From positions 1 through 42,486 of IMG/VR virus record IMGVR_UViG_2541047683_000004: 42,486 nt of DNA; one strand, given 5' to 3'. The stretch is from a virus (Duplodnaviria; Heunggongvirae; Uroviricota; Caudoviricetes). The notes beneath the pieces were generated by a model, which was given only the letters and a program-made list of their open reading frames with translations, was not told the origin of the DNA and did no database searches. Made by a program: the position numbers and the translations under genes. Positions within the stretch are counted from its first letter, which is position 1. Each line of letters opens with the position of its first letter. Below are positions 3,311-42,486 of the stretch, one piece after another.

Positions 3311-3610
3311 TCAAATAGAGAAATAAACACAAAAACAAACAGTAACAGGAACAACAAAGTCAAACAGGCTTCCAACATCCCATACGCGCGGATCAAAACC
3401 TCCCCACCACGGCATGTTGATACGTTTCCCTTTCCCAAACTTTTCTATCCAGCGATATTCTGCCTGGGTGTGTTCACGCGCAATGAAGAACGTACAACCG
3501 GCTATCGCACCGTAAGCCCAGTTTCCGGTAAAAAGACTGACCAGAACTTGTGCGACAACAGCGCAAAGTGCGTGAAGAATTGGTGTTATATCAACATCTA
3601 TATTCATCAT
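3311..3610 (-). CDS. Small polytopic membrane protein, function unknown (possible conversion or exclusion factor)
   Basis: Start at internal ATG 3610 with GAGG RBS; hydrophobic segments; sits between tailspike and lysis genes. Confidence 0.45.
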   Translation of the reverse strand: MMNIDVDITPILHALCAVVAQVLVSLFTGNWAYGAIAGCTFFIAREHTQAEYRWIEKFGKGKRINMPWWGGFDPRVWDVGSLFDFVVPVTVCFCVYFSI

Positions 3611-3687
3611 AAATAACCTCATTCCATTTTCACAAATAAGCCGCCAACAAGAAGACGGCATTAACATTAAAATAATTATATATGATG

Positions 3688-5817
3688 CTATTCCTCAATA
3701 CCTAACCTGCTTGAAACCTCCGGCATAACAGTAACCTGAAGGGTTTTTGATGAATCTGTGTTTTTAATTGCTATGCTGATATTGTCAGAAGTGCTGTTAT
3801 TGTTTGACACTGTTATAGAGTTTGCATCCACCCCGAGTTTCGAATAAGCATCAGCAAAACTAAGACCAACACTTCCACCAACAACTCTATATGAACCATC
3901 AATTCTGAATGACGATATATTGTTATTGCTAACATCTCTAATTAGAACCCATATAGAAACACCCCTGAAAACAAGGCTTGCCCCTGATGGTATTTGAAGT
4001 GATACAGTTCCTGTGGAACCGGGGGGGATACTGCCAGTATATTTAGTTCCGTGCAGATATTTCCCCGGTAGATCTAAATACGATGTGTCTGGATGTAATA
4101 AATTATGTATATGTCTGCTATCTATGCTTCCAGACAGAACCATAGAATCATTGCCATATTCAATTATCCTTCCACCATCGTTACTTATTGTAAGTAATCC
4201 TTTGTTTCCTTTATTATTTCTAACAGTTATATCAGAAGAATCCAGGCGGACAATTGATATATTTTTTTCTGATCCATGACAATAATTTGATGAAATTTCA
4301 CCTGTAACAAGTGACGTACATAAAATGTCTGAACTTCCATCACTGTCGCCAGTAATAGTGTTGCAGGAAATTAATGCACCATATACCAGGCCTGTTGGAG
4401 ATTCTCCAAATTGCTCTATAGTAATCCGTTTTGTGGTATTTGCTGATATGGTTATATTATGAACATCGTCAGTTTGCGATGTTACTTTGATCCTTGATGA
4501 AACTGTATTTCCAGAAATAGTAACATTACTTGTATCATCCACCCATAAATATGACGAAAACGTATTACATGATATGACTGAGTTACTCACCATTGAGTTC
4601 TCAAGCTCACATGAACCATAGCTATTGTTATGGTCATAATTTCCTATAATCCTTACAAATCCATTCTGGTTAATGAAGTTGTATGATGTTGCATTTTGTC
4701 CGCCATAAGTTGAGTTATGTGATGTTTCAGCATTTGTAACGCCTATATGTTGAAAATGACCGGCATTTACAGAATCAGGAGCAACTGATGTACACCCTAT
4801 TACTTTTGTGTTTTTGACAATTCTTGAATTAGGGTCATTCTCCAAATAATAGTTTTTTGCAACAAATGCCGTAGAGTAAAAGAAACCTTCAAATCTATTA
4901 AATAAAATCTGAATATCGTCATAATCTCTTTGGTCTTCATTTGCATAGCAATAAAATGCTCTTGAAGACTCGGAGTAATCCTTGCATTTCTGAACGCCAG
5001 ATAAAAGCGATCGGATTCTGCTAGATTTTATTCTAAATCCGTTGTGAATTAACGTTGCATCACCAACTAATGTTATTGGCTTAAACAATTCAACCTTATC
5101 AAAAACAAATTCACCACCATAAAATCCAAGTATAGCCCCTTCTGGTGCTGCATTAATAGCATTTTGAATTGCTACAGTATCATCTGTTATGCCGTCTCCT
5201 TTTGCACCAAAATCACGAACACTAATGGTGTCTCTCATCTTATCCTGGAACGTTCGGTACACAGCCCCAGAACCATACTGAATAAACCAACCAAAACCAC
5301 CAACAACCCCGGCGATTGCAGCATCGACATAATTACGCATTGAGCGATTATTTACAGCATCCTGCTCAAGTGATGGATCTGCAAGGTTAGAAATTCTGTT
5401 TTGCTTTGCATCGTAATATTTTGCAAGCAAAGATGGTTTCATCAATGCACGTCTGAACCACCCAAAACATTGCTGGATCAGCATCGTCAGGTAGTCAAAG
5501 GCATCTTCATGCACTTCGGGAAAAAACTTTCCCTGATTGCGAAGGTCTGTCTCCTGTACTACATCAAGCACACGATCTATCGTAATTCGCCATCCAGTAG
5601 CAAGCGGAGACGGAAGAACCACAGAACCGCCACTATAAGTGCCCGCCCCAGTTACCGTATAACCGGTATCCAGAACCAATTCTGTTACGTTCCCGTTCAG
5701 GTCAGACACCTGAACAACCAGGTCTGATTTTCTGAAAATTCGAAAAGTATACGGAAACGATGTCGTAACGCCGTTACCTGTGTATTCGTTGTGGTCAACT
5801 TCGGTTGAGACCGTCAT
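3688..5817 (-). CDS. Tailspike with right-handed beta-helix (pectate-lyase-like) polysaccharide depolymerase domain
   Basis: 709 aa; N-terminal particle-binding domain; motif VRDFGAKGDGITDDTVAIQNAI typical of pectate-lyase-3 superfamily; AT-rich, Ser/Asn/Thr-rich repeats. Confidence 0.8.
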   Translation of the reverse strand: MTVSTEVDHNEYTGNGVTTSFPYTFRIFRKSDLVVQVSDLNGNVTELVLDTGYTVTGAGTYSGGSVVLPSPLATGWRITIDRVLDVVQETDLRNQGKFFPEVHEDAFDYLTMLIQQCFGWFRRALMKPSLLAKYYDAKQNRISNLADPSLEQDAVNNRSMRNYVDAAIAGVVGGFGWFIQYGSGAVYRTFQDKMRDTISVRDFGAKGDGITDDTVAIQNAINAAPEGAILGFYGGEFVFDKVELFKPITLVGDATLIHNGFRIKSSRIRSLLSGVQKCKDYSESSRAFYCYANEDQRDYDDIQILFNRFEGFFYSTAFVAKNYYLENDPNSRIVKNTKVIGCTSVAPDSVNAGHFQHIGVTNAETSHNSTYGGQNATSYNFINQNGFVRIIGNYDHNNSYGSCELENSMVSNSVISCNTFSSYLWVDDTSNVTISGNTVSSRIKVTSQTDDVHNITISANTTKRITIEQFGESPTGLVYGALISCNTITGDSDGSSDILCTSLVTGEISSNYCHGSEKNISIVRLDSSDITVRNNKGNKGLLTISNDGGRIIEYGNDSMVLSGSIDSRHIHNLLHPDTSYLDLPGKYLHGTKYTGSIPPGSTGTVSLQIPSGASLVFRGVSIWVLIRDVSNNNISSFRIDGSYRVVGGSVGLSFADAYSKLGVDANSITVSNNNSTSDNISIAIKNTDSSKTLQVTVMPEVSSRLGIEE

Positions 5818-7186: not shown

Positions 7187-7262
7187 GCACTGGCAAAATC
7201 CAGTGCCGGGATTGGCGTCCCGGATTACTAAAAGGCGCATTCACCGCGCAAGCGGTTTTTTT
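7187..7262 (+). ncRNA. Candidate small structured RNA (two hairpins plus intrinsic terminator) in antirepressor leader A; c4-like riboregulator candidate
   Basis: Hairpins gcactgg/ccagtgc and ccggg/cccgg, terminator accgc-gcaa-gcggt-T7; conserved with compensatory changes in inverted copy at 10096-10174. Confidence 0.4.
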
Positions 7263-7419
7263 ATGCGTATAGCACGGCCACATTCGTATTATGGTGGGCT
7301 GTGTGGGGGCACCGAAAGGTGCGCCGGGTCCTTTTAGCCGGTTACGCCAACCCTGCACAGTTCACCACCAACCGATTGGCGTCGGTAGTGGTGATTAACC
7401 AGACTAAAAGGTAACCACT

Positions 7420-8115
7420 ATGACAGCTACAAAAAGCACGTCCATTTTTTCTTTCGAATCCCAAGCCGATATACGGGTAATCGTCATTAATGGTGAGCCA
7501 TGGTTTATCGCTTCAGATGTTTGTCGGGCTATAGGCATAGCAAACCATCGAGATGCTGTTCGAAAACTTGATGATGATGAGAAGGGCGTCGCTTCAACCG
7601 ACACCCCTGGCGGTGAGCAAGAATCGATCATCATCTCCGAGTCAGGCCTCTACACACTGATCCTCCGCTGCCGCGACGCAGTGACACCAGGCACTATCCC
7701 CTACCGCTTTCGCAAATGGGTTACAGGTGAGGTTCTTCCTCAGATCCGCCGCACCGGAAGTTACATTAAAAACTCGCTCCCGCAGGAAGAACGCATAAAG
7801 ATGGTTGCCGACCAGGTAGCCAACGCCACGGCGTCAGCAGTAATGCAGGCGATGAAGATAGAGAACAAAACCTACAGCGCCCCGCTGAAGCCCGGCTACC
7901 GCAGTCTGATTCATTCGCCGTCTGGTGTTCTCGGCCTGACGGAGAACTCATTGCTGATGAATCTGCTGAATCAGTTGCAGGACGACGGGCATGATGTATC
8001 GGGCGCGGCGGCGGAACTGACCACCATGTTCTGCTACATCGTCGGTGTGAGCAAATGCCTGCGTGATATCCAGACCCACGCGGAGTACATCAACGACAAG
8101 GCAGGGTTCTTCTGA
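7420..8115 (+). CDS. Antirepressor-like protein, Bro-N type N-terminal domain plus shared C-terminal module
   Basis: N-terminal SIFSFESQADIRVIVINGEPWFIASDVCRAIGI resembles Bro-N; C-terminal 80 aa nearly identical to gene 9289-9939. Confidence 0.65.
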   Translation: MTATKSTSIFSFESQADIRVIVINGEPWFIASDVCRAIGIANHRDAVRKLDDDEKGVASTDTPGGEQESIIISESGLYTLILRCRDAVTPGTIPYRFRKWVTGEVLPQIRRTGSYIKNSLPQEERIKMVADQVANATASAVMQAMKIENKTYSAPLKPGYRSLIHSPSGVLGLTENSLLMNLLNQLQDDGHDVSGAAAELTTMFCYIVGVSKCLRDIQTHAEYINDKAGFF

Positions 8116-8262: not shown

Positions 8263-8442
8263 ATGCGAAACGAAAAATTGCAGATGCGTAGAGCGCAAGC
8301 TGCCGCAAGACGTTCTTTCAATGGAAGCGTAGAGTACGTAAAAGTTACTATGACAAAAGATCACGCAAGTCGCGTATCCCGCGCTTTCTTTGATTCTCGT
8401 AACAATAAGGAAAATTATGAGTTCGTCTGCGTCGCAGAATGA
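8263..8442 (+). CDS. Small basic protein (59 aa), candidate antitoxin or regulator
   Basis: GAGGT RBS 6 nt upstream of ATG; overlaps start of downstream gene by 26 nt; not in supplied ORF track because under 60 aa. Confidence 0.4.
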   Translation: MRNEKLQMRRAQAAARRSFNGSVEYVKVTMTKDHASRVSRAFFDSRNNKENYEFVCVAE

Positions 8443-8962
8443 TAAAAATCAAATTGTCAGATATAAGGGTCGAGTGTTGCATACGCAAAATTTCTCGGCC
8501 CTTTGTGCATCTGATCTTGAGCTGAAGAAAGTATCTGATGCCTTTACCCAGTATTGGAAAACGGGATACCATCCATCTCTTGGTAAAGATGCTGCATTTG
8601 CTCGTCCGACAGAAATGCTTAAACTAAATGTCAGGCATACTCATGTCGATAACCAAGACTATATTCCAGAAGATAGTGATAAAAAACACACTGGTAAAAA
8701 ATCATCTTGGGATGCATGGAAAAATATAGCGTCTGTACAAGTAAAATGCATACCAACAAGTGATTGCTTTTTAGTTTATTCGGTAAATCACAATCGTGAT
8801 GCGCTGGTTATGTTTTTTGTTGACGCAGATGCTCACAACATAACTGAGCAAGAAGAGTTTAAAGAGGAAGCAATCACTATCAGTTATCAATTCTTTGAGA
8901 AAACAAAAACAGAACCAATGCCTTTAGAAGAAGATCTTTTTTCTGATAAATGGAAGGAATAG
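8417..8962 (+). CDS. AT-rich accessory protein, possible YafO-like toxin (tentative)
   Basis: AAGGAAA RBS; motif pattern F..Y...G..P..GKD, RHTHV, FLVYS, DADAH resembles recalled YafO-family pattern; visibly AT-rich versus flanks. Confidence 0.4.
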   Translation: MSSSASQNDKNQIVRYKGRVLHTQNFSALCASDLELKKVSDAFTQYWKTGYHPSLGKDAAFARPTEMLKLNVRHTHVDNQDYIPEDSDKKHTGKKSSWDAWKNIASVQVKCIPTSDCFLVYSVNHNRDALVMFFVDADAHNITEQEEFKEEAITISYQFFEKTKTEPMPLEEDLFSDKWKE

Positions 8963-9288: not shown

Positions 9289-9939
9289 TCAGAAGAACCC
9301 TGCCTTGTCGTTGATGTACTCCGCGTGGGTCTGGATATCACGCAGGCATTTACTCACACCGACGATGTAGCAGAACATGGTGGTCAGCTCCGCCGCCGCG
9401 CCCGATACATCGTGCCCGTCTTCCTGTAACTGGTTCAGCAGATTCATCAGCAGTGAGTTTTCCGTCAGGCCGAGAACACCAGACGGAGAATGAATCAGAC
9501 TGCGGTAGCCGGGCTTCAATGGGGCACTGTATTCTTTTTTGTCTTCCAGCTTGATCGCCTCCATAATGGCGGGCATGAAGCCTGACAAGACCTTCTCCAC
9601 TTTTGTTTCTTGTTGTCTTAAACGTTTCTCGCATTCAATGAAGTAGCGTCGTACCTGACGACCTTTTTCGTTACGCTCGACCATCGCCAGCTCTTTGGCT
9701 GTATCGAGGGTTAGGTGGTAGTCTTTTGCAGGACGGCCTCTGCCTATTTTTTCCCGAACTTGGGAAATAATCATAAAGTCTTGATTTTCAACGAAGCCAT
9801 ATTCAGCAATTCGTTCGACAATCCACGAAGCAAATCGCTTACCCACATCGAGGAAAGTGTGTAAATCACGGGCATTAACGAGAAGAGCGGTTTCGTTGGA
9901 TATAGTGCCGTTGAATACGGGGATGAGTTGAGCGTTCAT
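9289..9939 (-). CDS. Antirepressor-like protein, AntA/Rha-type N-terminal domain plus shared C-terminal module
   Basis: N-terminal LIPVFNGTISNETALLVNARDLHTFLDVGKRFASWIVERIAEYGFVENQDF resembles AntA-type domain; C-terminal 80 aa matches gene 7420-8115; GGAG RBS. Confidence 0.65.
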   Translation of the reverse strand: MNAQLIPVFNGTISNETALLVNARDLHTFLDVGKRFASWIVERIAEYGFVENQDFMIISQVREKIGRGRPAKDYHLTLDTAKELAMVERNEKGRQVRRYFIECEKRLRQQETKVEKVLSGFMPAIMEAIKLEDKKEYSAPLKPGYRSLIHSPSGVLGLTENSLLMNLLNQLQEDGHDVSGAAAELTTMFCYIVGVSKCLRDIQTHAEYINDKAGFF

Positions 9940-10095
9940 GATGGCGTCTCCACTTAGCGAATTACATCACCACCGCTGAGACCAATCAGATGGTGGTGAA
10001 CTGAACGGAGTTGGTCTTACCGGCCTAAGTGGTACCGGCGTCCTTTCGGACCCCCATTCAGCCCACCATAATTCTGGCATGACTGTGCTATACGC

Positions 10096-10174
10096 ATAAA
10101 AAAACCACGTCTGGCGTGGTATGCGCCACTTAGTAATCCGGGAGACCAATCCCGGCACTGGATTTTGCCAGTGC
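10096..10174 (-). ncRNA. Candidate small structured RNA in antirepressor leader B (inverted paralog of 7187-7262)
   Basis: Same hairpin-hairpin-terminator architecture; terminator stem differs in sequence but preserves pairing (ccacg-ccaga-cgtgg). Confidence 0.4.
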
Positions 10175-27414: not shown

Positions 27415-28890
27415 TTAAGCATAGGGATCGTAATCTGTAATGGCCTTGCCTTGCTGGTTCTGCTGCCCGGGAATTCGCAGACGCTTCGACACAGGGAACG
27501 CAAACGTCAGCAGTAGCGCATCGCCTTTACCAGGAGAACGCCCAAGTCGCTCTTTGATATCTTCCTTCGGTTCGATAACGATTTTACCGTCCACGCGAAC
27601 TTTGTACTCTGCCGTCGACAGGTCGTCCGCTGTTTCCTGGTCATCCAGCATGCCGCCGAGCCTCAGCCATGTCTTGCATGAGTTGAACATCTCCCCACGC
27701 TTGTTGAGCATCTGCGGGTCAGTAGACGCGCCACCGAACGGAACAAGTTGCCATGTACGACCCCAGCCGTCACCGATTGACTTCAAACCGGTTCCGTAAC
27801 CGAAGTCGATGAACACCGCGTCAGCCTGATACTGGTCTTCAAAGTCAGCGATACGCTTCGCCATAATCAGATCGTCGGTAGTCTTGTTGCCAGTCCACAG
27901 CACCTTACTGTGTAGCCCCTGCCGCAGGTATATCACAGCGTCATCAACGCCGGAGTATGCCGGGTCAACGCCGATTATCACCGGAGCATGCGCCACCTGC
28001 GCAGCGGTTACCACCCGTTTCATTGCCTCATCAGTAAGACCGGTAGGGATAAACTGCAATTCAGATGCATCAGGGAATATGCCGCGCACACGGATTTTAA
28101 CGAAGTCGCTGTCTTCCCCGTAGTCATCAACCCATTTCTGCAACTGCTGTTTGTTAGTGCCTTCCACCGTCCGGCTGTCAATCTGCGCAGTTTTCCAGCG
28201 GTGTTTATATTTGCGGAAACATTCACGGAATCGCCCGGTATTACGCGTCGGGTTTCCGAACGCCACCCAGATAATCTCAGTGTCTTCGTCAGTTAGCGCA
28301 CCTTCGGCAACTTCCCACACCAGATCCGCAATGTTCGACGCTTCATCGAATACCACGATGATGCGTTTGCGCTCGTTGTGTAGTCCGGCGAATGCCTCAG
28401 TGTTGTGCTCAGACCAGGGGATTGCGTCAGCTCGCCACCGCTTGTCGTGCCCAGGATCATTGCTGTACATCGCGGTAGCGGTACAGGTAAACCAGTCTTT
28501 CGTGATAGCAAGGTTCGACCACTTGATAATTTCCGGCCAGGTCTTCGTTCGTAGCTGGTTGTCGGTGTTGGCGGTCACCACGACCTTACAATCCTCGCAA
28601 GTGGACATGCCCCAGTTGATCAGCATTGAGATGAATGCGGATTTACCAATACCGTGACCAGAAGCACGTGCCAGCATAAGCGGCTGATATTGCGTCTCTG
28701 GATTCTGCAGGTGATCACGTATCTCTCGGAACGCATCGGCCTGCCACTGACGTGGACCGGTGGCATGTGCCAGTTCAGTACCCTCTTCCCCCCACGGGAA
28801 CGCATAGAGGGCATAGCCAAGCGGATCGTGAGTGAACCCTGCAATATCCTCGATCAACTGCTCTTCAGGAGATAACGCTGTATCTGTCAC
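27415..28890 (-). CDS. Terminase large subunit
   Basis: 491 aa; Walker A-like RASGHGIGKSAF; position after small subunit. Confidence 0.8.
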   Translation of the reverse strand: MTDTALSPEEQLIEDIAGFTHDPLGYALYAFPWGEEGTELAHATGPRQWQADAFREIRDHLQNPETQYQPLMLARASGHGIGKSAFISMLINWGMSTCEDCKVVVTANTDNQLRTKTWPEIIKWSNLAITKDWFTCTATAMYSNDPGHDKRWRADAIPWSEHNTEAFAGLHNERKRIIVVFDEASNIADLVWEVAEGALTDEDTEIIWVAFGNPTRNTGRFRECFRKYKHRWKTAQIDSRTVEGTNKQQLQKWVDDYGEDSDFVKIRVRGIFPDASELQFIPTGLTDEAMKRVVTAAQVAHAPVIIGVDPAYSGVDDAVIYLRQGLHSKVLWTGNKTTDDLIMAKRIADFEDQYQADAVFIDFGYGTGLKSIGDGWGRTWQLVPFGGASTDPQMLNKRGEMFNSCKTWLRLGGMLDDQETADDLSTAEYKVRVDGKIVIEPKEDIKERLGRSPGKGDALLLTFAFPVSKRLRIPGQQNQQGKAITDYDPYA

Positions 28891-31962: not shown

Positions 31963-32790
31963 CTACTCACCTCCGTTGATACGGATGCCAGTAGCGCGGA
32001 TTGCATCGATGACTTCAGAAACTTTGTATGCCATTACCGTTTGGTAATCATCGTGAAAATCTGTTCGATGAAGCATGCTGCTACGTTCTGGGAGCGATAT
32101 TTCCCGTGCTTCCAGTTCTGCTATGCGCTTCTCTGCGGATTCCAGCGCCGCAACCAATTCGTCTACAGTTCCGGCAGCTTGCAGTGCGTAATCGGTAATA
32201 GCCATCTCATGATCAATTTCAGTACCGTTCTCATTCGTTGAGGTGATAGCAAAATAATCAGAGTCGATTTCGTTATCAGCTAAGTGGCGTAGCGTATCGG
32301 CAACAAGCCGGCCGTTTTCGATTAGCAGCTTCCCAACCGTAAGAGCAATTTCCTCGTTCTCCTGGTCGCGGGATTTGATGTACTGCTGGTTTCTTTCCCG
32401 TTCATCCAGTAGTGCCAGCACGGTTTCTGGTCCGGCCAGAAATTTGAAGGCGTTGAGCGCATCAATATCCACACCGTAATCTTTAAGTTCTTGTTCACTT
32501 AACAAATCATCATCAGCTGGCAACATTAACAGGCGTTCCATTGCCGGAATTGCACGCTCTGCCGCCTCACGCAGTGCCTGATAGTCAATCTTGCTCACTG
32601 TTTGCCTCCTTTGCTCGCTGATTCCACTCTGCTCTAACCTCTGAATAAAAAATCGCGCAGTCATTTCCAGGCGCTGCATATTTGCTACCAGATTGAGCGC
32701 GACACGTACCGCATCGAACGAAATAGAATCGACCGCCAGAGCCATATTCAGGGTGATCTGCTTAGCTGGCAACGTGCGCTGCACCGCCAC
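31963..32790 (-). CDS. Hypothetical phage protein; start uncertain
   Basis: Long ORF, GTG or internal ATG start without clear RBS. Confidence 0.4.
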   Translation of the reverse strand: MAVQRTLPAKQITLNMALAVDSISFDAVRVALNLVANMQRLEMTARFFIQRLEQSGISEQRRQTVSKIDYQALREAAERAIPAMERLLMLPADDDLLSEQELKDYGVDIDALNAFKFLAGPETVLALLDERERNQQYIKSRDQENEEIALTVGKLLIENGRLVADTLRHLADNEIDSDYFAITSTNENGTEIDHEMAITDYALQAAGTVDELVAALESAEKRIAELEAREISLPERSSMLHRTDFHDDYQTVMAYKVSEVIDAIRATGIRINGGE

Positions 32791-35887: not shown

Positions 35888-36118
35888 TCATGAGTAGAAG
35901 AAGTATGCCAGTTCTGCTTTTGAGCGCAGCCATTGTCTTGTTTTACAGGCTTTAAAAAGCCCATTCATCAATACCTTACCTGGCATTTTGCGCTTACCTG
36001 TTAAGTGAGTCTGGATATAGTGACTCGTCGTTCCGGCTTCCTGTGCGAAGGCTTCACGCTCATCCGGAGTAAGTGCAAGCCAGTGCTTTTTGAAATCGAA
36101 ATGTCCGTTATCGCTCAT
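35888..36118 (-). CDS. Cro-like small HTH regulator (76 aa)
   Basis: Divergent from repressor gene across operator-rich region; helix-turn-helix-like segment EAFAQEAGTTSHYIQ. Confidence 0.5.
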   Translation of the reverse strand: MSDNGHFDFKKHWLALTPDEREAFAQEAGTTSHYIQTHLTGKRKMPGKVLMNGLFKACKTRQWLRSKAELAYFFYS

Positions 36119-36130
36119 AGCTATTGCCTG

Positions 36131-36154
36131 ATATTTATTTCAGATAATAAATAT
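36131..36154. promoter_or_regulatory. AT-rich inverted repeat ATATTTATT-N6-AATAAATAT in immunity region
   Basis: 9-bp perfect arms, 13 nt upstream of Cro-like ATG. Confidence 0.45.
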
Positions 36155-36201
36155 TCACCCATAAGGTAACAAAAATCAAGGATAGTTACCTATGGGGTGC
36201 A

Positions 36202-36218
36202 TTTACCTGTTGGGTAAT
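36202..36218. promoter_or_regulatory. Operator-like palindrome (copy 10) in immunity region
   Basis: tttacctgttgggtaat; nearby inverse arrangement GGTAAC...GTTACC at 36165-36190. Confidence 0.55.
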
Positions 36219-36272
36219 ATTGCTTTAAATTGAATCATCTACTGATTCATATATGAGGCGATTTTCCAGAAA

Positions 36273-36857
36273 ATGAAAAGTATCCAGGACGTCCGCAGGC
36301 AAAATCTCAACGACTTGATCGACCGTGAATTCAATGGTGTTCAGACGCGGATGGCAGAAAAACTTGGAACTCAGGCAAATCTGGTAAACCGCTGGGCTCT
36401 TGGCAAGAAGGTTATCGGCGACCAGGTTGCGCGAAAAATTGAAGCTGCCGCCAATAAACCCCGTAACTGGCTTGATATCGATCGCTCGCTTTCTCAGGAA
36501 GGTTTTCAGCCTGTCGGCCCAAGCGACATTGGTCAGCTGGCAGCTCACAACCTGGAACGCTGGATGAGCGAAAGCCGCGACCTTTCAACACAGGGAAAAC
36601 TTCACCGCGCATCCGGCGTAGCCCAGGTGACAATCAGCCGCCTGTTAAACAATGAGGTCAGCGTTTCCATTTCCACCCTGGAGAATGTTGCATCCGCATT
36701 CGGGCGTCACGGCTATGAATTACTGATTCACCCGCACGACCCTGCGACCATCAACTATGATCGCTCGCGCTACGCATTGTTACCCGAAACCGAGAAAGCA
36801 AAGATCGAAAGTTACATTGAATTTGTCATCAACCAGAACGAAAAAAACAAACAATAA
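36273..36857 (+). CDS. Phage repressor candidate with two tandem XRE-type HTH domains
   Basis: Two helix-turn-helix-like segments (residues about 20-45 and 105-130); monocistronic between operator clusters; terminator downstream. Confidence 0.6.
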   Translation: MKSIQDVRRQNLNDLIDREFNGVQTRMAEKLGTQANLVNRWALGKKVIGDQVARKIEAAANKPRNWLDIDRSLSQEGFQPVGPSDIGQLAAHNLERWMSESRDLSTQGKLHRASGVAQVTISRLLNNEVSVSISTLENVASAFGRHGYELLIHPHDPATINYDRSRYALLPETEKAKIESYIEFVINQNEKNKQ

Positions 36858-36878
36858 AACCATATTTTTCAGTAAGTA

Positions 36879-36902
36879 AGCCGCCTTATGGCGGCTTTTT
36901 TA
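36879..36902 (+). terminator. Intrinsic terminator after repressor gene
   Basis: agccgcc-ttat-ggcggct followed by T6. Confidence 0.65.
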
Positions 36903-36913
36903 TTGCCTATTCG

Positions 36914-36930
36914 ATTACCTAACGGGTAAT
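36914..36930. promoter_or_regulatory. Operator-like palindrome (copy 11)
   Basis: attacctaacgggtaat upstream of -35. Confidence 0.6.
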
Positions 36931-36948
36931 TTTTTTAACTCATATCTA

Positions 36949-36977
36949 TTGACATCAAACCATATACGCATAATTAT
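36949..36977 (+). promoter_or_regulatory. Early promoter TTGACA-N16-TAATTA
   Basis: Consensus -35 with near-consensus -10, flanked by two operator palindromes. Confidence 0.55.
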
Positions 36978-36992
36978 TACCTAAACGGTAAC
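36976..36992. promoter_or_regulatory. Operator-like palindrome (copy 12) overlapping -10/+1
   Basis: attacctaaacggtaac. Confidence 0.6.
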
Positions 36993-37010
36993 AGAACGAG
37001 GTAACAAGTT

Positions 37011-37163
37011 ATGCAGTGGAAAATCATCAACGGTTGGTACTGCGTTACTGCATGCGGATTCATGAGCTGGAAGTTCCGCACCTTACAGGAAGGCATTAAG
37101 TGGGCTTTCGTCAGCAAAGAAGCTCGCGATGTGGCCAACGATAACGAGATATGGGAGGGCTGA
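37011..37163 (+). CDS. Small early protein (50 aa)
   Basis: GAGG RBS; first ORF of early operon; under 60 aa so absent from ORF track. Confidence 0.4.
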   Translation: MQWKIINGWYCVTACGFMSWKFRTLQEGIKWAFVSKEARDVANDNEIWEG

Positions 37164-37165
37164 TA

Positions 37166-37465
37166 ATGAACGTTAATCAGCAGAAAAATCTTCAAAAAAT
37201 CATGCTGGCATTCGACAAGGACTACCGTCTGTCAGAACAGCTATATGACCGACAAGTTGAACTGATTGAGAGTATCCGGCTTCATCAACTGGCATCAACT
37301 TTCGACGTTGTAACAGTTAAAGGCGTTCGCCAGGAAGTACTGGAGGCCGCTAAAGACAGCCCTGAGTTCGAAGAACTAATGGATGCCTACCGGCGCGAGG
37401 CAATGGCAATTATCGCCCGCTGGGATCTGGCTGATCAGCTTGATGGGCAGAGGGACGCGGCATGA
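37166..37465 (+). CDS. Hypothetical early protein (99 aa)
   Basis: GGGAGGG RBS; stop overlaps nuclease start. Confidence 0.5.
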   Translation: MNVNQQKNLQKIMLAFDKDYRLSEQLYDRQVELIESIRLHQLASTFDVVTVKGVRQEVLEAAKDSPEFEELMDAYRREAMAIIARWDLADQLDGQRDAA

Positions 37466-38283
37466 AACCGGGAATTTATTTCGACATCAGCAACGAAGAC
37501 TACCACGCCGGTGACGGCGTGAGTAAGTCGCAACTGGACATGGTTGCCAAGAATCCGGCGCTTCTTAAATGGGTTCAGGCAGCACCAGAAGACGAAGAGA
37601 AAAAGTCTGCACTGGATATGGGAACCGCATTGCACTGTCTGCTTCTGGAGCCTGGAGAGTTCGACAAACGCTTCATTGTTTCACCGAAATTCGATCGTCG
37701 GACGAAACAAGGTAAAGCTGACGAAGAGGAATTTCTTCGTGATGTGGCGGATATGGGGATTACGGTACTTGATGCCGAGCAGTGGCGGAAACTGGAGCTG
37801 ATGCGTGATAGCGCAATGGCTCACCCGGCGGCACGCTGGATGCTGGAAGCACCTGGTTACTGCGAAGCATCAATGTACTGGAACGATGAAGAGACGGGGG
37901 AGTTGTGCCGAATTCGTCCAGACAAATGGCTGAACGAGCACAACGTGATCGTCGACGTGAAAAAGGTTGCAGATATGGACCGTTTTGCACGCCACATCGA
38001 GGAATTCCGCTACCACGTGCAGGACGCAATGTACCGCGAAGGCGCAATGAGGGTTACTGGTCAGCCGCATGGTTTTTTCTTTCTTGCCGTGAGCGAACGC
38101 ATTGATTGTGGTCGGTATCCGGTACGCGTGTTCGAGCTGGATGCGCAGGATGTCGATGCCGGGCACGCTCTGTTCCGCCGGGATCTGAATACCTATCACG
38201 AATGCCGCATCAATGATGAATGGGGCGGTGTGGAAATCATTAAACGCCCTGAGTGGGCACGCAAACAGGATATGTACATATGA
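37462..38283 (+). CDS. RecE-like PD-(D/E)XK exonuclease
   Basis: 273 aa; motif RIRPDKW ... VIVDVKK; translationally coupled (ATGA) to annealase gene. Confidence 0.6.
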   Translation: MKPGIYFDISNEDYHAGDGVSKSQLDMVAKNPALLKWVQAAPEDEEKKSALDMGTALHCLLLEPGEFDKRFIVSPKFDRRTKQGKADEEEFLRDVADMGITVLDAEQWRKLELMRDSAMAHPAARWMLEAPGYCEASMYWNDEETGELCRIRPDKWLNEHNVIVDVKKVADMDRFARHIEEFRYHVQDAMYREGAMRVTGQPHGFFFLAVSERIDCGRYPVRVFELDAQDVDAGHALFRRDLNTYHECRINDEWGGVEIIKRPEWARKQDMYI

Positions 38284-39221
38284 GCAACGACATCGCAAAC
38301 ATCAACGCACCAGTAGACACAGCAATCGCTGGAACTGCTGCAACTATTTTCAGCCCAGACGGCTTGAACCAACTGATGAAATTCGCCGAGGTAATGGCGC
38401 AAAGCCGCGTAACGGTACCGGCGCACCTCGCCGGGAAACCAGCTGATTGCATGGCCGTGGCAATGCAGGCTGCGCAGTGGGGAATGAACCCGTTTGCCGT
38501 GGCTCAGAAAACCCATGTTGTGAACGGCACGCTAGGTTATGAAGCCCAATTAGTAAACGCAGTTATCTCAACGATGTCGCCAACAAAAGATCGCATCAAC
38601 TACGAGTGGTTCGGGCCGTGGGAACGCGTGATCGGTAAGTTTGTTGAGAAAACATCCAAAAACGGCAATCCATATATCGCACCAGGCTGGACTCTAAAAG
38701 ACGAAGAAGGCTGCGGTGTTCGCGTATGGGCAACCATGAAGGGCGAGGATCAACCTCGAGTGCTTGAGTTAATGCTGTCTCAAGCACAGGTAAGAAACTC
38801 CACACTTTGGGCCAGTGATCCGAAACAACAACTCGCATACCTTGCGACAAAACGCTGGTCTCGCCTGCACTGTCCTGACGTAATCATGGGCGTCTACACC
38901 CCAGACGAATTACAGGAAACGGCACCGCGCGTTGAGCGAGACATTACTCCGCAAACGACCACTGCTGCGGGAATGAACAGTCTGATCAACGCTAAACAAG
39001 TGAAAAAGCCTGATGAGCAAACGCGTAAATCGGATAGCCGTGATCCAGAAGAAATGCTGATGGCCTTTACCAGCGCAGCGATGAATTACAGCACTGTCTC
39101 CGAACTGGATAAGGCTTACAAATACATTGCACAAAAACTTTCAGATGATGACGAACTGCTGGCAAAAGCCACCGACGTTTACAGCGTTCGTCGGGAAGAA
39201 TTAAACGAAACATCTATGTAA
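38280..39221 (+). CDS. RecT/Redbeta-family single-strand annealing protein
   Basis: Downstream partner of nuclease; C-terminal ERDITP segment as recalled in lambda Bet; overall RecT-like pattern. Confidence 0.6.
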   Translation: MSNDIANINAPVDTAIAGTAATIFSPDGLNQLMKFAEVMAQSRVTVPAHLAGKPADCMAVAMQAAQWGMNPFAVAQKTHVVNGTLGYEAQLVNAVISTMSPTKDRINYEWFGPWERVIGKFVEKTSKNGNPYIAPGWTLKDEEGCGVRVWATMKGEDQPRVLELMLSQAQVRNSTLWASDPKQQLAYLATKRWSRLHCPDVIMGVYTPDELQETAPRVERDITPQTTTAAGMNSLINAKQVKKPDEQTRKSDSRDPEEMLMAFTSAAMNYSTVSELDKAYKYIAQKLSDDDELLAKATDVYSVRREELNETSM

Positions 39222-39270
39222 CCACCACCGCGGCGCCACGCGCGCCGCACTGCAACCAAGAGAGGTATTT

Positions 39271-39519
39271 ATGAAAGGTGCATTAGGTAAGAAGGAACTC
39301 CTGGCGGTGGTTCCACTGTCATGGAGCACTATCGACCGTATGGAGCGCGCAGGGGAATTTCCTAAACGCTGGTATATCACCGATAAACGCTGCGCATGGA
39401 ACCGTGATGAAGTTGAGCGTTGGCTTGATGAACGTCAGGCAGCAAGCCCGGCAGAGTTCCAGGGTAAAAAACCTCCTGTTCAGCAACGTGTATATCGTCC
39501 CGTGAGCAACGCGGCATGA
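39271..39519 (+). CDS. AlpA-family phage regulatory protein
   Basis: Motif LSWSTIDRMERAGEFPK ... WNRDEVERWL typical of AlpA-type HTH proteins. Confidence 0.6.
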   Translation: MKGALGKKELLAVVPLSWSTIDRMERAGEFPKRWYITDKRCAWNRDEVERWLDERQAASPAEFQGKKPPVQQRVYRPVSNAA

Positions 39520-39632
39520 GTGTGCTGCTAAGGCACTGGAGCAAATGGTCAGGATGGTACTTATTCCTGGCCTCTGTTTCAGCATGGCTTTATCTGCTGG
39601 CATTAATTTTCAGAGAGGGTTGGATTAAGTGA
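39516..39632 (+). CDS. Small hydrophobic membrane peptide (38 aa)
   Basis: Start overlaps AlpA-like stop (ATGA); single TM WYLFLASVSAWLYLLALIF; stop overlaps next GTG start. Confidence 0.35.
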   Translation: MSVLLRHWSKWSGWYLFLASVSAWLYLLALIFREGWIK

Positions 39633-39928
39633 GAAAGTTAAGCCGACTTGAAAAATATCACATGAACAAGGTTTCAATGCGCAGTCCGTCAAAGATTGTC
39701 GCCGTTACTCCTGCGGCGATAGAGATCGAAAAACGCGCGATTGAAAGAGAGAAAAAAGGGCAGTTCCGCATTGCCGCTCACCTTTGGCTTCAGTGTATGG
39801 ATGTTGCTTCTGGTGATGTTGAGCGTGCAAGGATCGCGGTTCGCAGGGACCAATGTATCACAAAAGGTAACGGCCTTCGCCGTGGCGACTATAGCGGCAT
39901 AGGATGTTGTGGGGTGGTTTATGAGTAA
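39629..39928 (+). CDS. Small putative regulator (PerC/ANR-like, tentative)
   Basis: GTG start coupled to upstream peptide; basic 99-aa protein. Confidence 0.4.
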   Translation: MRKLSRLEKYHMNKVSMRSPSKIVAVTPAAIEIEKRAIEREKKGQFRIAAHLWLQCMDVASGDVERARIAVRRDQCITKGNGLRRGDYSGIGCCGVVYE

Positions 39929-40571
39929 GAAATACACACTAATCTATGCAGATCCACCCTGGGTATACCGGGACAAAGCCGCAGATGGTAATCGCGGTGC
40001 CGGTTTTAAATATCCGGTTATGAGTGTGCTGGATATCTGCCGCCTTCCTGTGTGGGATTTGGCCGATGAAAACTGTCTGTTGGCCATGTGGTGGGTGCCA
40101 ACACAACCACTCGAAGCACTAAAAGTTGTTGAGGCCTGGGGATTCCGTCTGATGACCATGAAGGGATTCACGTGGATAAAATGTGGTAGTCGACAACCAG
40201 ATAAACTGGTTATGGGTATGGGTCACATGACTCGCGCCAATAGTGAAGATTGCCTGTTTGCAGTAAAGGGAAAACTACCTACGCGCATTAATGCAGGGAT
40301 CGTTCAGTCATTTACCGCACCGCGGCTTGAGCATTCAAGAAAACCAGATATCGTTCGTGAAAAACTTGTGCAATTGTTAGGCGATGTTTCTCGCATTGAA
40401 CTGTTCGCCCGCCAGTCGTCTCATGGTTTCGATGTTTGGGGTAATCAGTGCGAAGACCCGGCAGTGCAACTACACCCTGGATACGCGTTGGATATTGCCA
40501 GATTAACAAATGCATTCAGCAATGCTCCGCTGTCACCAACAGACAACCAGGGGCGGGAGCGTGCAGCATGA
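39921..40571 (+). CDS. DNA N6-adenine methyltransferase, MT-A70-like
   Basis: DPPW motif near N-terminus ([10 protein letters not shown]), later EHSRKP-type motif; no cognate nuclease adjacent. Confidence 0.7.
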
Positions 40572-41227
40572 ACCTATATCAACGCATCAATGGCGCTGAC
40601 TGGTGCAATATCTTCGTCGTCGGCGATCTGCATGGGTGCTACACGCTGCTGATGAACGAACTCGACAAAGTTTCATTCGACCCGGCGCGCGATTTGCTTA
40701 TTTCCGTTGGTGACCTTGTTGACCGCGGCGCTGAAAACGTCGAATGCCTGGATTTGATTACTATGCCGTGGTTCCGAGCTGTTCGTGGCAACCATGAGCA
40801 GATGATGCTGGATGCACTGGTCAACGGCGGAAGTTTCGGACATTGGATGTCAAACGGCGGTGGATGGTGGCACCAACTTGATTCTGAGCAGGATGTGCAA
40901 CTCAAATACCTTCTGCCAAAGGTTACCAACCTCCCGATGATTATCGAACTGGTTACCGGCAATAAGAAGGTCGTCATCTGCCACGCAGACTACCCGCACA
41001 ACGAATACGCATTCGATAAGCCAGTACCGGAAGAAATGGTGATATGGAATCGTGAGCGGGTTAGCGACGCGCAGGACGGTATTGTCTCGGAGATAACCGG
41101 TGCCGATTTGTTCATCTTCGGTCATACGCCAGCACATCACCCACTAGTGTATGCAAACCAGATGTACATCGACACCGGCGCAGTGTTCTGCGGAAATCTG
41201 ACGCTTACCAAAGTCCAGGAAGGATAG
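40568..41227 (+). CDS. Serine/threonine protein phosphatase, lambda phosphatase (metallophosphoesterase) type
   Basis: Motifs GDLHG, GDLVDRG, GNHE characteristic of PPP-family phosphatases; ATGA coupling with MTase. Confidence 0.8.
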
Positions 41228-41229
41228 AA

Positions 41230-42486
41230 TTATTTATTACTGTCTTCCATCCACTTCTCAAACTTCGACGGGGAGAACGGAATCAGATCCGTATGCTCCC
41301 CGTTAATCCAGGAATCAATCATATCGGCCCACTGCTGCAACATGTAGGCGCGCTGTCTGGCGTATTCCGCTTTGTTATATACGGCGCGCACACCTTTCTG
41401 CTCATGTGCCAGAGCCTTTTCAATCCAGTCTGAAGGATAACCAGCCTCATGCAACAACGTACTGGCTGTACGGCGCATATCATGTACAGTGAAGTCCTGA
41501 ATATACTCACCATCTTCATTTATTATTTTCACCGTTCTGTCGATCAGAGAGTTCAGTGCGGCATTAGATAATGGCTTCCGGAAATTGTAACGACCAGGAA
41601 CCAGATATTCACTTCCACCAGCACACATCTGCAACCCGACCAATATATCCTGTGCCTGTTTAGGCAGGTAAATAACGTGTGCCCGGCTTCCCTTCATGCG
41701 GTCTGAAGGAATTGTCCATGTCCATTTTTTAAAATCTATTTCATCCCACGTTGCATTGGTGAATTCGCCTTTACGAACCATAGTGATAAGCACCAGCTTT
41801 AAAGCCATTTTCATAGTGCCCATAGCACCAATGGCATCCAACGTGCGGAAGAACAGGCCAATTTCTTCTGGTGTCAGTGTTCGCTCTCGTGGTTTAAATA
41901 TGGCGATAGACGAAGGCTTAATGTCAGCCGCAGGATTAAACAAACCATGACCACGGTCATTGGCGTGACGGTATACGCTGCTGATGATCTCCCTGGCCTG
42001 CACTGCTGTTGCCCGGCCACCGCGTTCGACAATCCGGTCACACAAATCACGAACCATCGATGTGGTAATTTCAGCCATCATTTTGTTGCCAAGAACCGGA
42101 AGTATGTCACGGTCGATCACTGCCTGCTTCATTGCGCGGGTACTTTCAGCCAGGATGACGTGTTTCATATAACTGTCGGTATGTACCGCAAACGTTTCGG
42201 CACCACGAATCTTTTTGATACCGTCACGTTTAGCCGCAGCCGGTGACTGGCCTGCTTTAAGCAGCTTCTTTGCAGCAATCAGTTCTTCCCGCGCTTCTGC
42301 CAGGCTGATACCGTCACGCCCATACTGCCCGATTACCAGTGTTTCGCGGCGACCGTTGATACGGTAGTCATAACGAAATGAGACCGTGCCTGACGTAAGC
42401 ACAGCTACATACAGCCCGTCACGATCGGAGACCTTGTACAGTTTGTCCTGCGGCTTGAGGTTTTTTAATTTTGTATCGGTAAGCAC
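41230..42486 (-). CDS. Tyrosine integrase, P4-like; N-terminus cut by window edge
   Basis: N-terminal LTDTKLKNLKP...YKVSDRDGLYVAV pattern; C-terminal HDMRRTASTLLHEAG...Y catalytic region. Confidence 0.85.
   Translation of the reverse strand: MLTDTKLKNLKPQDKLYKVSDRDGLYVAVLTSGTVSFRYDYRINGRRETLVIGQYGRDGISLAEAREELIAAKKLLKAGQSPAAAKRDGIKKIRGAETFAVHTDSYMKHVILAESTRAMKQAVIDRDILPVLGNKMMAEITTSMVRDLCDRIVERGGRATAVQAREIISSVYRHANDRGHGLFNPAADIKPSSIAIFKPRERTLTPEEIGLFFRTLDAIGAMGTMKMALKLVLITMVRKGEFTNATWDEIDFKKWTWTIPSDRMKGSRAHVIYLPKQAQDILVGLQMCAGGSEYLVPGRYNFRKPLSNAALNSLIDRTVKIINEDGEYIQDFTVHDMRRTASTLLHEAGYPSDWIEKALAHEQKGVRAVYNKAEYARQRAYMLQQWADMIDSWINGEHTDLIPFSPSKFEKWMEDSNK

Follow-up and report, generated by a model that had tools for sequence, protein, structure and literature searches.

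Gene Organization of the Integrase-Proximal Region

The window (the whole analyzed stretch of 42,486 nucleotides, IMG/VR record IMGVR_UViG_2541047683_000004) carried five overlapping plus-strand genes next to its integrase gene, in the order of AlpA-like protein, 38-aa membrane peptide, PerC-like protein, MT-A70 methyltransferase and lambda-type phosphatase (Table 1). All ORFs listed in the first-pass annotation were present on this strand, with the positions and order that it had given. The four junctions overlapped by 4, 4, 8, and 4 nt, respectively. The ATG of the membrane peptide overlapped the stop codon of the AlpA-like gene (ATGA), and the peptide gene does lie, with an overlap on either side, between the AlpA-like gene and a gene for a small basic protein, as had been described. 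The PerC-like gene began with a GTG overlapping the stop codon of the peptide (GTGA), and this start was supported by epsilon15, which has an ATG at the same position. The methyltransferase gene overlapped the PerC stop by 8 nt, and the N-termini of its homologues placed its start at the ATG at 39921 rather than at the GTG at 39909. The phosphatase start overlapped the methyltransferase stop (ATGA), in line with the coupling described in that annotation. The integrase gene was convergent with the phosphatase gene across a gap of 2 nt; its GTG start coincided exactly with the end of the window, and its length was equal to that in phage PAS61. The integrase in E. coli TCM3e1 was 192 nt from guaA.

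Table 1. Features of the integrase-proximal region, with positions in the window.
Feature	Position	Strand	Evidence or context
Sigma-70-like promoter, TTGACA-17-AATTAT	36949..36977	+	Directly after the terminator (36878-36897) of a repressor-like HTH gene
PD-(D/E)XK RecE-like nuclease	37462-38283	+	Pfam DUF3799; same operon, upstream
RecT	about 38253/38280-39221	+	Pfam RecT; same operon, upstream
AlpA-family protein, 82 aa	39271..39519	+	PF05930, 24.2 bits (cut-off 21)
Single-pass membrane peptide, 38 aa	39516..39632	+	phiV10p35, epsilon15 gp32, PHROG 17484 "membrane protein"
PerC-family basic helical protein, 99 aa	39629..39928	+	PF06069, 30.1 bits (cut-off 22.6)
MT-A70 (beta-class, DPPW) N6-adenine methyltransferase, 216 aa	39921..40571	+	PF05063, E = 3e-22
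Lambda-PP (NinI) orthologue, predicted Mn-dependent PPP-family protein phosphatase, 219 aa	40568..41227	+	PDB 1G5B, E = 7e-100
Cargo cassette, 673 bp (phosphatase body and final few integrase codons)	40574..41246	.	Alignment with phiV10, PAS61 and PA28
P4-type tyrosine integrase	41230..42486	-	Pfam Arm-DNA-bind_3, Phage_int_M, Phage_integrase

The order of the recombination genes upstream was identical in phiV10, epsilon15, Tyrion, SPN1S, and BUCT711. The promoter was the only plus-strand promoter-like site within 36000-42486, and it is a bare consensus match of a kind that was rarer in the region than in shuffled sequence. No plus-strand terminator-like site was found between it and the stop codon of the phosphatase, and a scan of 39000-42486 revealed no Rfam RNA family, no meaningful repeat and no plus-strand terminator. 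The promoter would thus mark the start of an early-left operon running to 41227, and it is from this operon layout that "early" expression of the genes is deduced. Upon infection or loss of the repressor, one polycistronic mRNA would be produced from near 36977, and the overlapping stop and start codons would couple the translation of the five genes.

Prophage Identity and Distribution

Judged from its sequence, the window is a phiV10/epsilon15-like (Uetakevirus) prophage, that is, a temperate podophage of E. coli. Comparison of gene orders indicated that the genus backbone comprises RecE-like/RecT, AlpA-like protein, the 38-aa peptide, PerC-like protein, a variable slot, MT-A70, a second variable slot and a convergent P4-type integrase. 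This order was kept in epsilon15, Tyrion, SPN1S, and BUCT711, and the inserts differed both upstream and downstream of the methyltransferase; those upstream encoded DUF1317, a winged-helix protein or a DndB-like protein. The first slot was empty in the window, and the PerC gene therefore abutted the methyltransferase gene.

The closest phages were PAS61 (vB_EcoP_PAS61, OQ921333) and BP9 (PP488543), which shared 98.2-98.3% identity with the window over 39200-41300, including all five genes, and whose phosphatases were 99% identical to the window copy. The corresponding region of phiV10 (NC_007804) was 98.5% identical to the window except for the slot. Gene order and overlaps in the window matched those of phiV10 genes p36-p31, PAS61, and BP9. 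However, phiV10 and most of its relatives possessed a 64-aa DUF1382 gene where the window has the phosphatase, and their integrases ended in ...KWMAGE, whereas that of the window ended in ...KWMEDSNK. The module was matched in 642 of 5426 complete E. coli genomes, and 143 of them had the phosphatase version, with the five genes at about 98% identity. Both flanks of the phosphatase slot were present in 513 E. coli genomes. Several phage genomes and hundreds of E. coli genomes in the databases already carry annotations of this gene set. Taken together, the locus is probably the part of a phiV10/epsilon15-type Uetakevirus early-left operon that lies nearest the integrase, in which a NinI phosphatase replaces the usual DUF1382 gene.

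AlpA-Like Protein, Membrane Peptide and PerC-Like Protein

The AlpA-like protein matched PHROG 66 "excisionase and transcriptional regulator" (E = 2e-16) and the AlpA-family structure PDB 8c3t (E = 1.8e-11), and the dN/dS of its gene was 0.04-0.05. It is probably an excisionase/regulator that partners the P4-type integrase.

The 38-aa peptide had a single hydrophobic stretch at residues 14-32 (Kyte-Doolittle 19-residue maximum 1.92) and a conserved motif, RHWxKWSGWY...AWL. Across epsilon15, Tyrion, and SPN1S, its dN/dS was 0.12-0.18 at dS 0.74-0.89, indicating purifying selection and hence a real coding gene. It was matched over 38 of 38 residues in all 35 matching phage records (tblastn, phage collection), and every annotated record among these had AlpA-type and PerC-type genes as its flanks. 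Only seven relatives were found among 1.84 billion representative proteins. Searches of Pfam, NCBIfam and PADLOC found no similarity of the peptide to Kil, holin or type I toxin families, and the sole match was PHROG 17484.

The "small basic protein" of the first-pass annotation turned out to be a PerC-family protein with a pI of 9.8. The PF06069 match covered residues 35-80, the match to the ANR family was below threshold, and PHROG 868 "transcriptional activator" was hit with E = 2e-61. The protein was similar to the PerC/Pch activators of EPEC/EHEC (PF06069) and to the related ANR family in being small, basic, helical and prophage-borne. Unlike PerC/Pch, it belonged to a distinct subfamily of 134 homologue clusters, all from Enterobacteriaceae, that is a fixed component of the AlpA-peptide-PerC module in Uetakevirus-type prophages, and it had an additional invariant C-terminal motif. 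The AF2 model comprised four helices followed by this motif, which was disordered yet invariant, and the model had no significant match among PDB folds. The peptide and the PerC-like protein would act as core regulatory or host-takeover factors.

MT-A70 Methyltransferase

Assignment to the MT-A70 family was borne out: the protein scored 79.7 bits against PF05063 (cut-off 23.9), the match covered profile positions 1-172 of 172, and the catalytic DPPW (motif IV) was located at residues 11-14. The nearest structural relatives of the AF2 model (pTM 0.78) were METTL3 (E about 2e-12) and Tetrahymena MTA1 (E about 2e-11), with TM of 0.6-0.7, in keeping with a permuted Rossmann fold as in those two enzymes. 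It was also correct that the enzyme has no restriction partner, its neighbors being the PerC-like gene, the phosphatase and the integrase. No restriction-type nuclease was found among the other scanned ORFs of the window, nor was a restriction partner found near methyltransferase homologues in other phage contexts. PADLOC classed the enzyme as a type II methyltransferase. M.EcoGI/II (349-aa DPPY enzymes) and M.EcoGIX (plasmid-borne and single-strand-specific) were considered as relatives and rejected.

The methyltransferase was 97% identical to phiV10p33 and 82% identical over residues 1-187 to gp05 of the Stx phage PA28, which contains the flanks of the mutagenesis primer for M.EcoPA8orf6770P. 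Like M.EcoPA8orf6770P/M.EcoGV (Gong et al., 2023, PMC10810198), the enzyme in the window has DPPW and lacks a restriction partner. However, the identity stopped at residue 187. The C-terminal tail of the Stx-type enzyme (about 27 aa), which has been proposed to bind PNB-2, was absent from the window enzyme, and its last ~30 residues were unrelated. The neighborhoods differed as well: the Stx phages have the PNB-2 gene upstream of the methyltransferase, whereas the window has the PerC-like gene there. The DUF1382 gene lies directly downstream of the methyltransferase in Stx phages and likewise in the phiV10-type relatives.

The homologue M.EcoGV methylates GATC in vivo upon overexpression, as described in two papers (PMC10810198; PMC6602927). 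By analogy with M.EcoGV, the window enzyme would N6-methylate adenine, with replicating phage DNA, at GATC or relaxed sites, as the likeliest target, and it would probably be dimeric, as a beta-class enzyme. However, the closest biochemically studied homologue is reported to have almost no in vitro activity on DNA alone, and the same Stx-phage enzyme bound to its specificity subunit PNB-2 is reported to prefer 16S rRNA and to tune prophage induction (PMC10810198). This weakened the assignment to GATC in DNA. The window contained 157 GATC sites (observed/expected 0.75), a mild under-representation that says nothing either way on the target of the methyltransferase, and palindrome statistics were equally uninformative. 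Methylation of GATC by the phage enzyme would duplicate that by the host Dam.

Lambda-Type Phosphatase and the Exchangeable Slot

The last gene of the operon had been called a lambda-type PPP phosphatase, and the match to 1G5B and the active-site residues agreed with this assignment. The protein shared 145 of 217 residues (67%) with 1G5B, kept 9 of 9 active-site residues (D20, H22, D49, R53, N75, H76, H139, R162, and H186), and belonged to PHROG 246 "NinI-like". It was of the same length as lambda PP (NinI/orf221), and the GDxHG, GDxVDRG, and GNHE motifs were present in both. The closest DNA outside this prophage type was ninI/ppp of HK225 and phi80 (78-79%). From the 67% identity to the characterized enzyme, the protein would be expected to have Mn2+-dependent phosphoprotein phosphatase activity. 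As an optional accessory, it would, soon after infection, dephosphorylate host proteins at Ser/Thr/Tyr and possibly at His.

The position of the gene differed from that in lambdoid phages such as HK225 and phi80, whose ninI is an early-right gene of the nin region, between the replication genes and Q; in the window it was the last early-left gene, beside int. In Klebsiella phage BUCT711, the phosphatase was found in the early-right operon.

Identity with related genomes extended to ...GCATGAAC (40573) and returned at CCATCCACTTC (41247), so that the boundaries of the cassette fell at the third codon of the slot gene and within the last integrase codons. The slot of phiV10 and of most E. coli copies instead contained 203 bp coding for a DUF1382 protein similar to lambda orf63, and the slot lengths observed in E. 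coli genomes were 203 or 673 bp. Among 55 copies from E. coli genomes sampled at even spacing, 40 (~73%) carried the DUF1382 allele and the other 15 the phosphatase, and HEMP4 carried a third allele. At least three different cargoes, the phosphatase among them, thus occur in this slot between the methyltransferase and the integrase. The phosphatase and DUF1382 alleles have the ATGA junction and their initial two codons in common. Because the cassette swaps the DUF1382 gene from the third codon on, the ATGA coupling derives from the slot.

Comparison with the Lambda exo-xis Region

The exo-xis region of lambda (orf60a, orf63, orf61, ea22, and ea8.5) lies, like this locus, between recombination and integration genes. 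In lambda, DUF1382 corresponds to orf63 and DUF1317 to orf60a, two exo-xis genes between exo/bet and xis/int, and the two families are common to exo-xis and to this region in the relatives; neither was present in the operon of the window. Thus, by gene order and family membership, the locus corresponds to the exo-xis region in position and partly in gene families. However, AlpA, the 38-aa peptide, PerC and MT-A70 are non-lambda genes, and the integrase is convergent in the window but co-directional in lambda. The exo-xis genes of lambda are early, non-essential modulators of lysogenization and induction (PMC3824215; PMC5575149).

Possible Functions of the Locus

The first-pass annotation proposed that the methyltransferase and the phosphatase may form an anti-defense pair and that the peptide could be a Kil-type or toxin-like factor. 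As a dedicated pair, the two enzymes would shield phage DNA from restriction and undo kinase-based abortive infection of the host, respectively. Both enzymes are within an operon likely to be expressed early, the methyltransferase lacks a restriction partner here and near its homologues elsewhere, PADLOC's type II call and the reported in vivo GATC methylation by M.EcoGV point in the same direction, and protection of incoming DNA is a role widely ascribed to prophage methyltransferases (PMC4659465). An anti-restriction role of the methyltransferase, by analogy, is possible. However, the two genes were not kept together across relatives: the phosphatase is carried on an exchangeable cassette and owes its coupling to the slot, DUF1382 takes its place in most sampled copies, and the gene is sited in another operon in BUCT711 and in the nin region in lambdoid phages. 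On this synteny, the methyltransferase and the phosphatase are not a conserved pair, and the functional pairing that had been claimed was unsupported. Lambda ninI is non-essential, and our literature search found neither a link between NinI-type phosphatases and defense nor evidence that lambda-PP-type enzymes reverse kinase-based defense. Its sole match for counter-defense by a phage phosphatase was an unrelated Macro-domain ADPR-1''-phosphate phosphatase, and the T7 kinase papers deal with kinases rather than phosphatases. The peptide resembled none of the Kil, holin or toxin families. The proposal as a whole thus appeared quite unlikely. We considered it still less probable, with only a slim chance, that the int-proximal genes are prophage-expressed morons, the PerC-like protein activating host or pathogenicity-island promoters (as in Pch/PerC) and the phosphatase rewiring signaling (as in PrpA/PrpB). 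The PerC-family membership of the protein, the resemblance of the phosphatase to the E. coli PrpA/PrpB models (NCBIfam, 266 and 221 bits, below the cut-offs), the variable slot adjoining the attachment end, which is a typical moron position, and the reported induction of the homologous methyltransferase operon of Stx phage in lysogens nearing stationary phase (PMC10810198) are consistent with lysogenic conversion. However, no promoter-like site or terminator separates these genes from the early operon and all junctions overlap, and the PerC-like gene is genus core that is also present in Salmonella, Enterobacter, and Klebsiella phages without an LEE target.

A further explanation, which we regarded as unlikely though somewhat less so than the anti-defense pair, is that the MT-A70 enzyme is mainly a 16S rRNA methyltransferase like M.EcoPA8orf6770P, with a specificity partner other than PNB-2, and that it tunes translation and hence spontaneous induction or the lysis-lysogeny choice. 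The identity to the Stx-phage enzyme extends over the catalytic core, both genes occupy equivalent places a few genes away from int, and METTL3 and MTA1, the nearest structural relatives, each serve as the catalytic subunit in an obligate hetero-complex. The candidate partner would be either the PerC-like protein or a binder of the methyltransferase's own conserved C-terminal tail. In favor of this explanation, the gene immediately upstream overlaps the methyltransferase start in the window, PA28, Tyrion, and SPN1S, the invariant, predicted-disordered motif at the PerC-like C-terminus resembles a binding peptide, and in-frame PerC-methyltransferase fusions are present in assemblies, although these may be 1-nt indel errors. 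In addition, the methyltransferase tail is genus-conserved and differs from the Stx-phage tail. Against this explanation, a PNB-2 homologue was absent throughout the window (tblastn with PA28 gp06, no match better than E = 0.13), and pairwise BLASTP detected no similarity between the PerC-like protein and PA28 gp06. The PerC-like model is a helical bundle, whereas a winged-helix motif was predicted for PNB-2 by its authors (PMC10810198). The rRNA claim itself derives from the SAM-consumption assays of that one paper, which did not establish which base is modified, and the literature search turned up no later work on it. Moreover, the adjacency of the PerC and methyltransferase genes in the window is incidental because other genes intervene in Tyrion, SPN1S, epsilon15, and BUCT711, and by this synteny the PerC-like protein was rejected as an obligate partner. 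More specifically, it is improbable, about as much as the moron explanation, that the minimal Uetakevirus MT-A70 is a partner-dependent 16S rRNA or dual RNA/DNA methyltransferase with one of these candidates as its specificity subunit in place of PNB-2, and that it belongs with the slot cargo, in the window a protein phosphatase, to a host-takeover set governing induction frequency rather than protecting against restriction.

Implications

The reading of the locus as the early-left end of a Uetakevirus with an exchanged slot gene is of low novelty and matters little as a discovery, as the genes are ordinary accessory genes of a common prophage type. An overlap between a start codon and the preceding stop codon is, in a phage cargo slot, no evidence that the neighboring genes cooperate. 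The analysis also flags a conserved 38-aa membrane peptide that the NCBI annotation of E. coli genomes omits. About 10% of complete E. coli genomes have a near relative of a reported prophage rRNA methyltransferase that is unaccompanied by the partner described for the latter. The occurrence of this enzyme without PNB-2 offers a natural case in which to test DNA against RNA as the substrate.

Organization and distribution of the integrase-proximal genes

Five plus-strand genes with overlapping ends were found at positions 39271–41227 in the ORF list and the raw sequence, immediately downstream of RecT and PD-(D/E)XK nuclease genes (Pfam). The phosphatase gene and the integrase gene were convergent, with a gap of 2 nt, and the window ended exactly at the GTG start of the integrase. 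The ORFs and families described in the first-pass annotation agreed with the ORF list, the sequence and Pfam, including the MT-A70, lambda-type phosphatase and AlpA-like assignments; its "small basic protein" was indeed basic (pI 9.8) and could be refined to a PerC-family protein.

Genes at the integrase-proximal end of the prophage
Feature	Position	Strand	Evidence
AlpA-like gene	39271–39519	+	Pfam Phage_AlpA
38-codon ORF, membrane peptide	39516–39632	+	ATGA overlap with AlpA-like gene
99-codon ORF, PerC family	39629–39928	+	GTGA overlap with peptide ORF; Pfam PerC
Methyltransferase gene	39921–40571	+	8-nt overlap with PerC-like gene; Pfam MT-A70, full profile
Phosphatase gene	40568–41227	+	ATGA overlap with methyltransferase gene; Pfam Metallophos
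Tyrosine integrase gene	41230–42486	-	P4-type Arm-DNA-bind_3/Phage_integrase domains (Pfam)

The module at this locus is already known, well sampled and annotated. Full-length matches to the region came from Escherichia phages PAS61 and BP9 (98.2–98.3% identity); phiV10, O157 typing phages 9 and 10, TL-2011b, ZX5 and others matched it except for the phosphatase, and TL-2011b and phiV10 were closest over the remainder of the window. The same genes were annotated in phage records, in phiV10 in the order AlpA-family regulator, membrane protein, PerC-type activator, DNA methyltransferase, DUF1382 protein and P4-type integrase. The module was matched in 642 of 5426 complete E. coli genomes, and its phosphatase-containing version in 143 of the 5426. 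In E. coli strain TCM3e1, guaA was located 192 nt from the integrase.

Cassette exchange between the methyltransferase and the integrase

The slot boundaries were aligned among the window, phiV10, PAS61 and Stx phage PA28. Identity with phiV10 extended past the methyltransferase stop and on for the first two codons of the gene that follows (...GCATGAAC, to 40573), was then lost, and was regained at 41247 within the last integrase codons. Thus, a 673-bp segment in the window stands in for a 203-bp segment in phiV10, which encodes a 64-aa DUF1382 protein. The two flanks were joined and searched against the E. coli genomes, and both were present in 513. At 55 evenly spaced places from this set, the slot was 203 bp (DUF1382) at 40 and 673 bp (phosphatase) at 15, the latter share being consistent with 143/513 from the module search. 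In phage HEMP4 the slot was occupied by an Ant-like gene and an 82-aa ORF, a third allele, and Tyrion, SPN1S, BUCT711 and epsilon15 each had other small genes in the slot. The NinI-like phosphatase of the Klebsiella Uetakevirus BUCT711 was in the early-right operon, beside a replication gene.

The methyltransferase and phosphatase had been proposed as a translationally coupled anti-defence pair. The coupling is present in the sequence as an ATGA overlap, and the same ATGA is common to the phosphatase and DUF1382 alleles. Given the exchange, the shared ATGA, the allele survey and the position in BUCT711, adjacency and coupling are properties of the slot; a functional pair was not borne out, and the "pair" arose by chance through the exchange of cassettes. 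For the anti-defence reading, and for the Kil- or toxin-like reading of the 38-aa peptide, the computed evidence points neither way.

The phosphatase aligned end to end with the lambda protein phosphatase (PDB 1G5B, E = 7e-100; 145/217 residues identical). All nine active-site residues of 1G5B that were checked (D20, H22, D49, R53, N75, H76, H139, R162 and H186) were conserved. It was a member of PHROG 246 ("NinI-like"), and the nearest DNA outside this prophage type was ninI/ppp of HK225 and phi80 (78–79%). By sequence, it is a genuine lambda-PP orthologue. The ninI gene is dispensable in lambda, and our literature search found no paper assigning the lambda-PP/NinI phosphatase a biological or anti-defence role.

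The membrane peptide and the PerC-like protein

The peptide had one hydrophobic helix with basic residues on either side. Its length was 38 codons in all relatives, it was under purifying selection (dN/dS 0.12–0.18 at dS 0.74–0.89), and it was matched over 38/38 residues in all 35 phage records containing it, lying between AlpA-type and PerC-type genes wherever the record was annotated. Only seven relatives (representatives) were found among 1.84 billion proteins, with the common motif RHWxKWSGWY...AWL, and no match to Kil, holin, toxin or defence families was detected. This is a genuine small membrane protein that belongs to the genus core. Several phage records annotated it; the RefSeq/PGAP annotation of TCM3e1 (locus L008, 3820–3978, corresponding to window 39516–39632) omitted it and placed the PerC start at an ATG further downstream (83 vs. 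99 aa), and no name corresponding to the peptide appeared in the feature lists of the other E. coli genome matches.

The PerC-like subfamily comprised 134 clusters, in Enterobacteriaceae only. The protein of the window also matched the ANR family, below threshold. The AF2 model had four helices and a confident core at residues 28–80, and showed no significant match in the PDB (best, MIT/TPR-like helical bundles, E > 0.2). The last 12 residues were nearly invariant yet predicted to be disordered, which suggests a binding motif. Synteny argued against this protein as an obligate methyltransferase partner, because other genes lie between the two in Tyrion (DUF1317 and a winged-helix protein), SPN1S (DUF1317 and a DndB-like protein), epsilon15 and BUCT711. 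Two public Logan assemblies contained in-frame PerC-MT-A70 fusions (P0005, 297 aa; P0003, 263 aa; 96–98% identity; window 39629–40571). These may be real, or may be artefacts of 1-nt indels or deletions at the 8-nt overlap.

Expression and the lambda exo-xis region

The consensus scan detected a sole plus-strand promoter-like site (36949–36977), right after the terminator of a repressor-like HTH gene, and no plus-strand terminator-like site from there to 41227. Together with the unbroken overlaps, this suggested a single early-left transcript. The phosphatase and integrase stops were 2 nt apart (41225–41232) with no terminator between them, so this transcription would also read antisense through int. 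RNase III sites are annotated around int in the epsilon15 record.

In lambda, orf63 (DUF1382) and orf60a (DUF1317) are annotated between exo/bet and xis/int. DUF1382 occupies the slot in phiV10 and Stx phages, and Tyrion, SPN1S and BUCT711 have DUF1317 genes separating PerC from the methyltransferase; the RecT-to-int stretch is therefore, by position, the counterpart of exo-xis, whose early, dispensable genes modulate lysogenization and induction (PMC3824215, PMC5575149, PMC8614690). An Ead/Ea22-like gene, from another exo-xis family, was located on the opposite strand in the early-right region (31963–32790, -), adjoining lambda-P-like and DnaT-like replication genes.

Other features of the window

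Two inward-facing pairs of isrK sRNA and C4 antisense RNA (Rfam RF01394 and RF01695, all above the gathering score) were found at 7187–7372 (+) and 9989–10174 (-), each immediately preceding a gene of antirepressor type (Bro-N, 7420–8115, +; AntA, 9289–9939, -). That would give this prophage two antirepressor modules under C4 control in the manner of P1/P7. Between the modules, a 190-aa ORF (8390–8962, +) matched the Pfam YafO-toxin family weakly (26.1 bits, cut-off 25). A phage-borne tRNA-Arg (anticodon TCT; 26753–26829, +) lay between long ORFs at 24425–26104 (-) and 27415–28890 (-). At the opposite window end, glycine-zipper/TraT-like (1–516, +) and DUF5384 (532–1071, +) ORFs are probably cargo genes of the other prophage end.

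The methyltransferase and its substrate

The methyltransferase carried a DPPW motif at residues 11–14, and its AF2 model (pTM 0.78) matched the METTL3 and Tetrahymena MTA1 catalytic subunits (E 1e-12 to 1e-11). The earlier label "orphan" was correct: no restriction gene was adjacent in the window, or beside homologues located after a lysis cassette or next to a Pantoea prophage integrase. The closest characterized relative was the Stx-phage enzyme; PA28 gp05 was 82% identical over residues 1–187 and included the exact flanks of the published M.EcoPA8orf6770P mutagenesis primer.

Gong, Chakraborty and Koudelka reported that M.EcoPA8orf6770P raises the frequency of spontaneous prophage induction and that, on its own, it is only weakly active and lacks specificity, with unmethylated GATC DNA among its substrates (PMC10810198). 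In their report it co-purifies 1:1 with PNB-2, which the immediately preceding gene encodes, and the complex favours 16S rRNA within 30S subunits. The same paper describes GATC methylation in vivo on overexpression of the near-identical M.EcoGV (PMC10810198), and M.EcoGV is also listed as a Dam homologue (PMC6602927). No PNB-2 homologue was found in the window, and the PerC-like protein was unrelated to PNB-2 by sequence comparison. The last ~30 residues differed from the Stx-type enzyme; this tail is conserved in Tyrion, phiV10 and a homologue from Enterobacter hormaechei, and epsilon15 lacks it. A literature search found no follow-up to the 16S rRNA claim. GATC-like DNA adenine methylation is favoured here as the default activity, with RNA methylation a live rival.

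In Salmonella phage SPN1S (L006), the gene immediately preceding MT-A70 (3433–4428) overlaps its start by 4 nt and encodes a 331-aa DndB-like protein (PF14072, E = 1e-42), an alternative candidate DNA-binding partner for this methyltransferase family.

The choice between DNA and RNA as substrate is the point of most interest in this widespread MT-A70 enzyme, which occurs here without the only partner described so far.
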